Assembly: GCA_963664875.1 (NCBI GenBank)
Contig: OY761611.1
Span: 1,792,001-1,856,000, forward strand
DNA: 64,000 nucleotides
Source of the DNA: Candidatus Kapaibacterium sp.
GTDB taxonomy: Bacteria > Bacteroidota > Ignavibacteria > Kapaibacteriales > UBA2268
Direction of reading: 5' to 3'
Part shown: positions 2-3,532 of the stretch, one piece after another
How the letters are laid out: each line of letters begins with the position of its first letter
Numbering within the stretch: position 1 is the stretch's first letter
Program-made: the position numbers and the translations under genes
Notes under the pieces: model-generated
What the model was told of the DNA's origin: nothing
Databases searched by the model: none
Seen by the model: the letters and a program-made list of their open reading frames with translations, nothing else

Positions 2-1126
2 GGGGTTATTTAGAATAAATGAGATATAAGGCATTTTAGCTTTATTTTCAAATATTTTATGCAAGAGTAAAAGTATCTGAGTTGATTTAGAATTATCTTC
101 ATCTTCGGATATGATTATGATAGAATTAGCATATTGCACATTCGCTATTTTCAAATCATCTTCTACAGTAGGGCTTCCGGTACGAAACGTAATGCTTAAT
201 CTGCTACTGTTTTTGATATTTTGAGAAAAATACGCAGCCATGTCCGCTTTGCTCTTTTCTGCAAGCACAACAGCAATTATTCTTTTCTTGCCCTCTAAAG
301 ACATCAGCAATTCGTTAAAAATTATACTGATGTTGTCAGACCATCCCAAAATCACAACATGATCGGTGTCGTAGGTCTGTTTCCTGCCGGAGGCATCTAA
401 CTCACGAATATTTTCCAACTCCGAAACTAATACACCTATAAACAAATTGAGTATAATCATACTGCCAATAACAATAAAGGAAATGTAAAATATAGATGCA
501 ATCAGAGTGTTTCCGTTTTCTATCTGGGTGGCAAGCAAATCCGGCCAACCTTCACCCGTAATTGTCTGAAACAAAGTAAGCACTGCGGAAGAAAGATCTC
601 CATAATGCTCTGGGTCTGACACTTTGAACATGAAAACACCCATTATTCCATAGACATAAAACAAAATAAGAATTATCAGTGCTACATAACTCATGGAAGG
701 AAGACTCTGGAATAAGGTATTAACAAGGCGTTGCAGCGGCTTGACAAAAGAGAAAAAACGCAGCACTCTCAGCACTCTGGTCAATCTCACTAATCTGAAT
801 ACGATTACTGCCTCAACCACGGAAGATGCTTCAAACAACCACGGCAAAATGCTAAGTGCGACAATGATAAAATCAAACAAATTCCAGGCATCTTTGAAGT
901 AGTCAAAAGGAGTGGGTTTGTTAGCATACATCTTAATAAATACCTCAGCAACAAAGATTGAGATAATTATATTATCAACAGTATGCAGAATGTGCGACAT
1001 TTCCGAGCTCAGACCGGGTATAGTTTCCAGTCCAATCAGACATGCCGAAATAAAAATGAGAAGCATTATTGCATTTTCGAACCAGTTATTTTCTTTATTC
1101 TTTATTTTTTCAAAAAGTTGGCTCAT
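2..1126 (-). CDS. Voltage-gated cation channel (6TM, BacNav/Cav-like) fused to a C-terminal RCK-type domain; 3' end runs off the window
   Basis: Not in the ORF track because it is edge-truncated; translated by hand from ATG at 1126 (MSQLFEKIKNKENNWFENAIMLLI...). S3 motif WNLFDFIIV, S4 FRLVRLTRVLRVLR, pore LFQTITGEGWPD, S6 ILNLFIGVLV, then HVVILGWSD...FRTGSPTVEDDLKIANVQYANSIII. No stop before position 2. Confidence 0.9.
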   Translation of the reverse strand, partial: MSQLFEKIKNKENNWFENAIMLLIFISACLIGLETIPGLSSEMSHILHTVDNIIISIFVAEVFIKMYANKPTPFDYFKDAWNLFDFIIVALSILPWLFEASSVVEAVIVFRLVRLTRVLRVLRFFSFVKPLQRLVNTLFQSLPSMSYVALIILILFYVYGIMGVFMFKVSDPEHYGDLSSAVLTLFQTITGEGWPDLLATQIENGNTLIASIFYISFIVIGSMIILNLFIGVLVSELENIRELDASGRKQTYDTDHVVILGWSDNISIIFNELLMSLEGKKRIIAVVLAEKSKADMAAYFSQNIKNSSRLSITFRTGSPTVEDDLKIANVQYANSIIIISEDEDNSKSTQILLLLHKIFENKAKMPYISFILNNP

Positions 1127-1420: not shown

Positions 1421-1762
1421 ATGTCAAATTCAATCCGCACAACAGATGATTATACCAAATTAGGTTTTTGGAAAAAACTTGTCAATTCTGCACAAAAGGG
1501 CGGGAAGAAAGTTATAGAAAAGGCTCTTATTCTATACTATACTCTTAATGACAGCGATACTCCCAAAAAGTACAAAGCTATTATTTACGGAACTTTGGGC
1601 TATTTTATAGCTCCCTTGGACGCTATCCCTGATTTTGCACCTGTGATAGGCTACAGTGATGATTTATCTGTTATTGTAGCTACTCTGATCGCAGTCTCTT
1701 CCTTCGTGAAAGAACAACACAAAGAGCTGGCACGACAAAAAATAGACAAACTTTTTGGTTAG
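1421..1762 (+). CDS. YkvA/DUF1232 family small membrane protein
   Basis: Motif YFIAPLDAIPDFAPVIGYSDDL is typical of DUF1232. Confidence 0.85.
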   Translation: MSNSIRTTDDYTKLGFWKKLVNSAQKGGKKVIEKALILYYTLNDSDTPKKYKAIIYGTLGYFIAPLDAIPDFAPVIGYSDDLSVIVATLIAVSSFVKEQHKELARQKIDKLFG

Positions 1763-1846
1763 GAAGAGAAGGACTTTACAATAAACATATAAACCATTTT
1801 TTTATCAGCAACGTTAATCTGAGAAAATCAATATTTGGATTCTATC

Positions 1847-3532
1847 ATGGAAGGTATTAAAGATACTTCAACTATAAGTCTGAGAAAGATATTAGGAAAC
1901 GGACTTACATATCTTGTTCCGAAATTCCAAAGGGATTATTCTTGGGAAACGGAGCACTGGGATGACTTATGGTTAGACATGATAGATTTATATAATGATG
2001 TTGAAACAAGCCATTATATGGGATATTTAGTTTTTCAGACATCAGACAATAAACTGCACAAAATTATTGATGGACAGCAAAGGCTTACTACAATTTCTTT
2101 ACTCATAATTTCTATCTTGAAGAGACTCAAAGAACTTGAAGAGACAGGTATTGATGCTGAGAAGAATAAACTTAGAAGAGAACAACTTCAAAATAGCTAT
2201 ATAGGATTTATCGACCCTGTTACTTTGATTGCTAAGAATAAATTAGAGCTCAATAGAAACAATGATGATTTTTACAAACATTATATTGTGCCTCTTGCAA
2301 ATCTCCCTCAAAGAGGCAGAAATGCCTCAGAAAAGTTAATGAAAGCTTGTTTTGAGTGGTTTTATAAAAAAACAACTTCTCTATATAAAACCGGAGAAGA
2401 GCTAACAAGGTTTATTGAAAAAATAGTAGATAAACTTTTCTTTACGGTTATCACTGTAGGCGATGAACTAAATGCTTATAAAGTATTTGAGACATTGAAT
2501 GCGAGAGGAGTTAAACTATCTACGGCTGATTTATTAAAAAACTACCTTTTTTCAATTGTTGACTCGAATGAGAAAGAAACTAGGAAAGAAGAATTTGAGC
2601 TTTTAGAGTACTTATGGAGTGAATTACTCAGGAAGCTCGGTTCTGAGAAATTGCCTGAGTACATACGATATTACTGGAACAGCAAAAATAAAACTGTAAG
2701 AAAAAATGATTTATTCAAGACATTAAAATCTAACATAAAAGATAAAGCAAACGTTTTTGCATTGTTGAGAGATTTAGTTGAGAAAGCTGATATTTTTGTT
2801 GCGATTTTAAGTCCTGAAGATGAGTATTGGAATAACCATACTTTAGAACTTCGCAATAGCTTACGAGAATTGAAAATCTTTGGTGCAAAACAACAAATCT
2901 CTTTACTTATTTCAGGCAAAAGTAATTTGACTGACCCAAAATTTACTGAGTTAGTTAAATACTGCTCGATAGTGTATATGAGATATAATATTATTGGTGG
3001 ACTTAATCCAAATGAGCAAGAAGGAATTTTCAACAAGTTAGCTTTGGATATTCAAAACAATAAAGATTATAACAAATCTGATTTTTTGGAAATATACCCA
3101 TCTGATGAAGAATTTGAAGTAGCCTTCTCAAATAAAGAATTTACAAATACCTCAAGAAACAACAAAGTTACAAAATACATCTTAACAAAAATAGAGAACT
3201 ATATCTCACAGGCAGATTTTGATTTTCAGAGCGATAGAAATACGATTGAACATATTTTACCTGAAAATCCGGATGATACATGGGATATCGAAGATGATGT
3301 GCGAAATAGATGCAGATATAGACTTGGCAATCTAACATTGTTAGAAAAAAACAAAAATTCGCATCTTAAGAACAAATCTTATGATCAGAAAAGAATTGTT
3401 TTTCAGAATTCCAAATTTGCTATAACTAAGGATATTGCGGCAGATTATTCTCATTGGGGTGAAGAAGAAATATCAAGACGTCAGAATATTCTGGCAAAAA
3501 AAGCTAAGACTATTTGGAGAATAAGTTTTTAG
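1847..3532 (+). CDS. DUF262 + DUF1524 (HNH) protein, GmrSD-like modification-dependent restriction family
   Basis: VPKFQRDYSW, IIDGQQRLTT and FETLNARG (DUF262); TIEHILPE and RLGNLTLL..N (DUF1524 HNH). ATG at 1847 preferred to TTG at 1835. Confidence 0.85.
   Translation: MEGIKDTSTISLRKILGNGLTYLVPKFQRDYSWETEHWDDLWLDMIDLYNDVETSHYMGYLVFQTSDNKLHKIIDGQQRLTTISLLIISILKRLKELEETGIDAEKNKLRREQLQNSYIGFIDPVTLIAKNKLELNRNNDDFYKHYIVPLANLPQRGRNASEKLMKACFEWFYKKTTSLYKTGEELTRFIEKIVDKLFFTVITVGDELNAYKVFETLNARGVKLSTADLLKNYLFSIVDSNEKETRKEEFELLEYLWSELLRKLGSEKLPEYIRYYWNSKNKTVRKNDLFKTLKSNIKDKANVFALLRDLVEKADIFVAILSPEDEYWNNHTLELRNSLRELKIFGAKQQISLLISGKSNLTDPKFTELVKYCSIVYMRYNIIGGLNPNEQEGIFNKLALDIQNNKDYNKSDFLEIYPSDEEFEVAFSNKEFTNTSRNNKVTKYILTKIENYISQADFDFQSDRNTIEHILPENPDDTWDIEDDVRNRCRYRLGNLTLLEKNKNSHLKNKSYDQKRIVFQNSKFAITKDIAADYSHWGEEEISRRQNILAKKAKTIWRISF

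Follow-up and report, generated by a model that had tools for sequence, protein, structure and literature searches.

A 64,000-nucleotide stretch of a Candidatus Kapaibacterium sp. genome (contig OY761611.1, positions 1,792,001 to 1,856,000), referred to here as the window, carries at its left edge the first 375 codons of a 732-codon gene on the negative strand whose product, P0001, joins two kinds of ion channel module in one chain. The membrane part is a voltage-gated channel of the bacterial BacNav type, while the cytoplasmic part is predicted with high confidence, from sequence matches and a structure model, to be a complete CASTOR/DMI1-type tandem-RCK subunit of about 480 amino acids (aa; residues 257-730). 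The reading favoured here, with a modest degree of confidence, is that P0001 forms a homotetrameric channel that is activated by voltage, prefers Ca2+ and has its gate additionally tuned by an RCK ring sensing a cytosolic cation. The novelty is the combination of two known kinds of channel module, found in a rare and uncharacterised family.

The gene begins with an ATG at window position 1126 and extends approximately 1072 bases to the left of window position 1. In the source genome (G000, a one-contig genome of 3.83 Mb in which the window is G000:C1:1792001-1856000) it is complete at L001:428-2626 (-), with the stop codon at L001:428-430, and the intact 732-aa product recovered there bears out a first-pass annotation, made from the letters of the window alone, which had reported a channel gene missed by the open reading frame (ORF) track. 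The gene was missed because frames that run off the end of the sequence are left out of the ORF listing by default. Contigs of approximately 96%-identical strains, assembled from metagenome runs, show, among the differences listed, substitutions only within the coding region, and the insertions and deletions listed are all intergenic. The GC content of the gene is 0.345 and that of its third codon positions (GC3) is 0.334, whereas 24 long ORFs from the window have 0.375±0.031 and 0.332±0.048; recent horizontal transfer was considered on the basis of composition and rejected, as neither value gives a signal against these ORFs. No NCBIfam model matches the 732-aa protein. It is encoded by the only Castor_Poll_mid gene in G000 and by one of two Ion_trans genes. 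The second Ion_trans gene (L110:470-1363 (-), equal to G000:C1:187769-188662) encodes a Kv-type K+ channel of 297 aa with a TTIGYGD filter (TIGYGD) and a Cys-rich C-terminal end.

Residues 14-245 constitute a BacNav-type six-helix channel module. Pfam Ion_trans covers residues 14-242 (E value 3e-50), and residues ~7-250 match the bacterial single-repeat chains 4bgn (E 7e-44), 6sx5 (E 2e-36), 6vwx (E 2e-35) and 4dxw (E 5e-29). Eukaryotic CaV and NaV channels are matched in each of their repeats, and because every such four-repeat protein is thereby hit four times, its summed score is high. The full voltage sensor with five S4 arginines described in the first-pass annotation is present (R111, R114, R117, R120 and R123), and the protein thus has the six Ion_trans helices and the regularly spaced basic S4 residues of BacNav channels. 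In the family alignment (n = 19 sequences), the sensor residues N18, T35, F58, E61, W81, D85 and R117 are invariant, among them the counter-charges E61 and D85 and the hydrophobic plug F58, and E34 is kept in 18 members; of the remaining S4 arginines, R114 and R120 are each kept in 18/19 members, as is R123, which is replaced by lysine in the other member. The structure model contains a long S6 helix (residues 207-245) and an S4-S5 helix whose BacNav-like length, taken together with homology to BacNav structures, suggests a domain-swapped arrangement of the sensors.

BacNav channels have a short cytoplasmic C-terminus, composed of a neck and a coiled-coil bundle, in a protein of about 270-300 aa. 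In P0001, S6 is instead followed by a tandem RCK region of approximately 480 residues, and the Rossmann-like stretch HVVILGWSD...FRTGSPTVEDDL...SIII quoted in the first-pass annotation is present directly after this helix. Pfam places Slo-like_RCK at residues 255-348 (31.9 bits; cut-off 24) and Castor_Poll_mid at residues 397-491 (E 9e-17); like that of Ion_trans, these scores lie well outside what chance would give. Of the profiles named for searching in the first-pass annotation, Ion_trans and Castor_Poll_mid matched, and TrkA_N fell below its cut-off. Taken by itself, the segment 251-732 matches the DMI1 ring 7vm8 at E 8e-25 and the CASTOR rings 6o7c and 6o6j at E 5e-24, in both cases over RCK1, in agreement with the likeness to CASTOR/POLLUX that had been read from the sequence pattern, and the match to the MthK RCK domain is marginal (E about 0.07). 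Identity of the ring to CASTOR is approximately 20%. Across the 19 family members, Ion_trans and Castor_Poll_mid are each found in all 19 and Slo-like_RCK in 18.

An AlphaFold2 model of the whole protein, built from an 81-row alignment of 25 fused proteins, 25 bacterial CASTOR-like proteins and 31 stand-alone channels, has a mean pLDDT of 90.2 and a pTM of 0.83. Its tail folds into two Rossmann-type lobes with C-lobes (residues 257-~481 and 513-730), joined by an inter-RCK linker (residues 482-512) of lower model confidence. Foldseek searches of the PDB with this model returned the DMI1 ring 7vm8 first (E 7e-31; target-normalised TM score 0.83; root-mean-square deviation 3.6 A over 509 columns), together with the CASTOR rings 6o6j, 6o7a and 6o7c (E 1e-29 to 2e-28; target-normalised TM score 0.81-0.84; 509-518 columns). 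Full-length Slo1 and Slo2.2 matched with E values of 4e-21 and weaker (query-normalised TM score of about 0.5; about 900-950 columns), and isolated BK rings and GsuK with E values of 8e-18 and weaker at a lower score (617-665 columns). The proposal of a RCK gating domain accordingly stands as to the kind of domain, which models as RCK, and not as to its number: the fold matches, the sequence matches and Castor_Poll_mid all point to two tandem RCK domains per subunit, as in CASTOR. The features of the gene and the two genes upstream of it are collected in Table 1.

Table 1. Location of the channel gene, its predicted domains and the upstream genes; positions are those of the window unless prefixed L001
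Feature	Residues	Position	Strand	Evidence
Channel gene, N-terminal 375 codons	1-375	2..1126	-	ORF listing with open ends; whole-genome locus
Voltage-sensor domain S1-S4	14-127	746..1087	-	Ion_trans; model helices 14-34, 44-68, 80-98, 104-127; column counts
S4 helix	104-127	746..817	-	Arginines 111, 114, 117, 120, 123 at every third position
S4-S5 linker helix (12 residues)	129-140	707..742	-	Model helix; BacNav-like length
Pore module S5-P1-filter-P2-S6	142-245	392..703	-	Ion_trans; BacNav matches; model
Selectivity filter TGEGWPD	T190-D196	539..559	-	Family counts; alignment to CaV3.1 repeat I
S6-to-RCK1 linker	246-256	359..391	-	Constant length across family
RCK1, start of N-lobe	257-375	2..358	-	Slo-like_RCK, Castor_Poll_mid; DMI1/CASTOR sequence and fold matches
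RCK1, remainder	to about 490	L001:1157-1501 (left of window)	-	As for start of RCK1
RCK2	513-730	L001:437-1090 (left of window)	-	Fold match
DUF1232 membrane protein		1421-1762	+	Upstream of channel gene, divergent
GmrSD-type (type IV) restriction endonuclease		1835-3532	+	GmrSD_N E 1e-36, GmrSD_C E 3e-30; upstream, divergent

The selectivity filter, TGEGWPD, lies exactly where it had been placed in the first-pass annotation and aligns with FQVITLEGWVDIM of CaV3.1 repeat I. The exact motif is found in 10 of the 19 family members and the relaxed form [T][GA]E[GA]W[PA][DE] in 14; among the 14 closest fused proteins, designated clade A, the exact motif is strictly kept in 10. Filters of the deeper family members are SFEGWSG, SFEGWSW or AFEGWSW in three members and TFDDWSE or TFDDWSQ in two. 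With a threonine, one acidic residue per subunit and a tryptophan in the arrangement T-x-(E/D)-x-W, and with Gly at position 4, where the AnclNav type has Gly or Asp and not Ser, the filter of P0001 is of the kind carried by the 'ancestor-like BacNav' (AnclNav) channels CavMr and NavPp, and is not of the TVGYG type found in Slo K+ channels.

The relatives of the membrane module were sought by scanning one genome per prokaryote species with patterns drawn from the membrane part of the family alignment, a scan that is not informative on the rarity of the fusion. At least 80 loci with at least 81 ORFs were found, and among the matches listed all were stand-alone channels, with 4-69 aa following the channel match in stop-to-stop frames of mostly 285-412 aa. 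The filters of the 81 stand-alone relatives among these matches are TLEDWTD in 44, the Gly4 TLEGWxx type in 24 (exactly TLEGWVD in one) and other non-serine variants in 13, and none of the 81 has a TLESW or other Ser4 filter. Because these stand-alone relatives carry filters of the CavMr/NavPp type and none of them carries TLESW, the channel module is assigned by sequence and tree placement to the AnclNav lineage and not to the canonical TLESW BacNavs.

Mutational work on these two channels (Shimomura et al. 2020, PMC7041947) bears directly on what the fused pore may conduct. The CavMr filter is TLEGWVD, as stated in the first-pass annotation, and that of NavPp differs by G4D and V6T. The permeability ratio of Ca2+ to Na+ (PCa/PNa) is 218 in CavMr and becomes 12 with G4S, 8 with G4D, 40 with V6T and 144 with D7M; the Ca2+ selectivity of this channel depends chiefly on Gly4, and Asp7 is dispensable. 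NavPp is Na+-selective with a PCa/PNa of 0.31, which D4G alone raises to 41, and single changes at position 6 shift selectivity strongly in both channels (PMC7041947). A preference of the fused pore for Ca2+ is likely because its filter keeps the glutamate ring and the Gly4 that make CavMr Ca2+-selective.

It is possible, though clearly less probable, that the same architecture surrounds a pore that is Na+-selective or poorly selective, in which case the ring would tune a depolarising Na+ or general cation current. Relative to CavMr, the fused filter has Leu replaced by Gly at position 2 and Val replaced by Pro at position 6, the latter being a position of known influence in both characterised relatives, and the selectivity of the fused pore could therefore be weak or different; no characterised channel with Pro6 or Gly2 in this filter was found in the literature searched. 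The commonest filter among the stand-alone relatives listed, TLEDWTD (44/81), is that of the Na+-selective NavPp, and the wide differences between the filters of deeper family members, such as SFEGWSW and TFDDWSE, suggest that selectivity is not fixed across the family. However, P0001 carries Gly4, the residue that sufficed to convert NavPp, and its Glu3 ring and acidic position 7 are kept within a motif that is constant in most of clade A. Ca2+ selectivity together with ligand gating, as first proposed for this protein, is plausible from the sequence.

The connection between pore and ring is of nearly invariant length. The span from N227 in the LNL motif of S6 to W262 in the GW of RCK1 comprises 36 residues in 17/19 family members and 34 in 2/19, as expected of a mechanical connector. 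Candidate ion sites of the ring were located by mapping those of CASTOR through a HMMER alignment, and comparison of the residues expected at 14 CASTOR positions served to confirm its offset. The CASTOR ring, according to PMC6697748, contains a Ca(I) site with D442, a Ca(II) site with E493, a Ca(III) site with S345, D553 and D554, and a Mg site with D444, and E493 is a bidentate Ca(II) ligand that is common to the Na+/K+ site. The equivalent of E493 is E425, a glutamate in all 19 family members that lies inside the conserved motif LSFEGxE(I/V)Y. For Ca(III), D553 corresponds to D483, with aspartate in 10/19 members.

Several further observations weigh against the favoured reading. The Ca(I) ligand D442 is replaced by N374 (aspartate in 9/19 members), the Mg ligand D444 by A376 (acidic in 5/19), and the Ca(III) ligands S345 and D554 by G279 and S484, neither position being conserved. 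The fused ring plausibly keeps no more than one ion site of the CASTOR kind, and for this reason its ligand is given as a first guess, either Ca2+ or some monovalent cation; the invariant E425 could also be structural instead of a ligand. In a search of sequencing runs, no RNA run was listed as carrying the gene. The gene is also dispensable for the genus, since it is absent from all four congeners (4/4), with no match in congener DNA. A single 194-nucleotide contig inside the gene came from a run (X20) that bore an RNA-Seq label yet was marked 'probably DNA', and it was not used as evidence of expression.

The loss of most CASTOR Ca2+ and Mg2+ ligands would also fit a ring that serves mainly as an assembly or stability module, replacing the coiled coil of BacNav channels and sensing no ligand. 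A nucleotide-type GxGxxG motif was not seen in the first strand-helix turn of either Rossmann lobe (ILGWSD in RCK1, IIGFND in RCK2), the stand-alone relatives end in the short tails described above, and one close stand-alone relative (L086) has a tail rich in charged, heptad-like residues. Such a role is nevertheless improbable: a 480-residue ring conserved over 25-41% identity, with a fixed-length S6 linker and an invariant glutamate at the ion site, exceeds what tetramerisation needs, and the characterised rings used for comparison, those of CASTOR (PMC6697748) and BK (PMC13095418), are ligand sensors. That the voltage sensor is vestigial and gating is purely by ring ligand, as in CASTOR or MthK, is very unlikely, for although only two of the five S4 arginines survive in the clade A member P0003 (positions 111, 114 and 120 being D, S and I) and the sensor can thus decay within the family, P0001 keeps all five and E61, D85 and F58 are unchanged in every member.

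The mechanism proposed for a voltage-activated, Ca2+-preferring channel tuned by its ring is as follows. Four subunits would assemble into a domain-swapped channel above a cytoplasmic ring of eight RCK domains, and the S1-S4 sensors would open the S6 gate upon depolarisation, with the Glu3 ring and Gly4 most likely favouring Ca2+ over Na+ in the filter. A cytosolic cation would bind the ring at a site centred on E425, and the ligand-bound ring would either pull on or relax S6 through the short linker. Voltage and internal ion concentration would then jointly set opening, amounting to the logic of BK channels on a pore of the Ca2+/Na+ type. A narrower version of this proposal, in which P0001 is a native bacterial voltage-gated Ca2+ channel with its own Ca2+-sensing ring, so that the permeant ion feeds back on the gate, is tentative; feedback of this kind could take the form of Ca2+-induced potentiation or of Ca2+-dependent shut-off.

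The first-pass annotation had called the protein chimeric, which holds in that it is a fusion; it is, however, no one-off. A word-indexed search identified 18 other clusters at 90% identity with both Ion_trans and Castor_Poll_mid, 27-42% identical to P0001, bearing only the names 'ion transporter', 'hypothetical protein' or 'Kch'; their named sources are Leptospiraceae and metagenome-assembled genomes (MAGs) of Spirochaetota and Bacteroidota. An exhaustive search of 1.84 billion representatives at 50% identity gave 19,425 matches at E <=0.001, and the best 150 of these include 10 full-length fused proteins (744-840 aa), the remainder being mostly eukaryotic four-repeat channels. Within the host order, the fused gene is present in 13 of 254 species genomes, G000 included, although two of the genes are cut or partly matched, and the other fused genes of the order are 26-34% identical to P0001. 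Judged from these sequences, the fusion is a small, rare, unnamed and conserved family. One further genome of the order has a split form of the gene: in G142, of the same family as the host, the overlapping ORFs L102:1453-2424 and L102:2330-3799 match query residues 13-306 and 291-678, respectively, and represent either a gene broken by a frameshift or a version that is truly divided in two.

The history of the two halves was examined in a maximum likelihood tree that covered 110 membrane modules (IQ-TREE, quick search, with SH-aLRT support values) and in a tree of the RCK part (quick search, LG+G4, with a long-branch warning). In the membrane tree, a branch with 96% support separates 26 fused modules and three stand-alone modules (P0160, L086 and L087) from the 81 stand-alone channels. 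Clade A has 99% support in the membrane tree and 99% in the RCK tree, and P0001 is sister to P0003 in both; because of this shared support and pairing, the two halves are taken to have travelled together. Changes between fused and stand-alone labels number three in the membrane tree, two of them forced by well-supported branches, and four in the RCK tree, one of them forced, and there may have been one origin of the fusion followed by loss of the tail.

Two of the stand-alone channels that group with the fused family have unusual filters. The one at L086:1456-2394, from a genome of the same order (G036), has TGDGWSA and the charged, heptad-like tail, and the one at L087:1486-2433, from a genome of the same family (G014), has the degenerate filter ISGNWSE without an acidic position 3. 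Stand-alone AnclNav-type genes also occur as head-to-tail tandem paralogues in several genomes, including two of the same order (L104 in G240 and L105 in G245) and a Caldilinea MAG (L029).

By sequence, the closest relatives of the ring are bacterial CASTOR-like channels with two membrane helices (2-TM). The 2-TM CASTOR-like proteins are common in the family of the host, where 17 of 24 genomes gave some match and did so mostly through proteins of this type, and none is found in G000. Examples (P0029, P0038, P0042, P0053 and P0074; about 620-660 aa) resemble P0001 in ring sequence but lack a voltage sensor, their pore loop, of the D-x-G-T type, being flanked by only two membrane helices. The Castor_Poll_mid ring also occurs on a K+-channel module with a TVGYGD filter, in a 711-aa protein of an Acidimicrobiales MAG (P0045), and a CASTOR-type ring therefore occurs on three pore types in bacteria.

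Comparison with characterised channels places P0001 between several systems. It shares with CavMr and NavPp (PMC7041947) the single-repeat six-helix plan, the S4 arginine repeats and a filter of the form T-x-E-G-W-x-D with Gly4 and an acidic position 7, and differs in having Gly2 where these have Leu and Pro6 where they have Val or Thr, as well as in the tandem RCK that replaces their short C-terminal tail. It shares with CASTOR, POLLUX and DMI1 (6O6J, 6O7A, 6O7C and 7VM8; PMC6697748) the RCK1-RCK2 tandem with its close fold match and Castor_Poll_mid domain, the GW(S/x) with which the first strand-helix turn opens, and the E493-equivalent glutamate with its surrounding motif. Unlike CASTOR, whose pore has a ...GNHA filter with D265 (PMC6697748), the bacterial protein has a pore of the Ion_trans/BacNav type with an S1-S4 sensor, and its ring, at about one-fifth identity, lacks the Ca(I) and Mg ligands and part of Ca(III). 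Slo1 (BK) and Slo2.2 likewise carry sensor, pore and RCK1-RCK2 in one chain, match the model over about 900 columns, and would share with P0001 a gate that answers both to voltage and to an ion inside the cell. They differ in their K+ filter, as opposed to the Nav/Cav-type T-x-E-x-W, and P0001 has no S0 and is 13-15% identical to them. The S4-S5 connection of the Slo family is short. Moreover, the BK sensor is not domain-swapped (PMC13095418), whereas the S4-S5 helix of the fused channel suggests a swap.

The pairing of domains had been considered unusual, and no description of a Nav/Cav-type channel with a RCK ring was found in full-text searches of open-access PMC papers and bioRxiv. Studies of RCK rings have dealt with K+ pores and with that of CASTOR, and not with a pore of the Nav/Cav type. 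If the tentative Ca2+-feedback reading is true, P0001 would be the first channel in which such a ring drives a domain-swapped gate of the Nav/Cav type, which would show the CASTOR/BK ring to be a gating module portable across pore superfamilies. As a compact, putative single-gene homotetramer, it would offer a tractable structural system for asking how a cytoplasmic ring and a voltage sensor act on a common gate in a Nav/Cav-type channel. The new variants Gly2 and Pro6 could test the Gly4 rule of Ca2+ selectivity, and the family filters SFEGWSW and TFDDWSE would serve as natural selectivity variants on one scaffold. In the literature searched, CavMr is the only native prokaryotic Ca2+-selective voltage-gated channel found described; the fused channel could open a route to the study of regulated bacterial Ca2+ entry and could possibly provide a small, doubly controllable Ca2+-entry tool. 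Under the feedback reading, it would give a prokaryote a Ca2+-signalling element that is excitable and complete in itself.

Downstream of the channel gene, a gene for a 312-aa membrane protein (P0081; L002:7984-8922 (-), about window -2016..-1078) starts 5 bp after the channel stop codon. P0081 has three predicted membrane helices and a Pfam TerB match of 22.6 bits, below the cut-off of 24.4, and the order of the two genes is kept in a contig of an approximately 96%-identical strain from an activated-sludge run (X11). This TerB-like protein was considered as a conserved partner of the channel and rejected: in G002 and G003, orthologues at 71% identity are preceded by an ORF of 175-192 aa and not by a channel gene, and at 12 other fused loci no homologue is present within the flanking ~1.2-1.5 kb. 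The adjacency is treated as local. Further along lie P0082 (361 aa, no Pfam match; L002:6847-7932 (-)) and a pyridoxal-dependent decarboxylase (E 5e-119; L002:4438-5934 (-)). In the congeners, the channel and TerB-like genes are not within this decarboxylase-P0082 block, which is itself syntenic at 71% identity in G002-G004 and has two nearby matches in G001.

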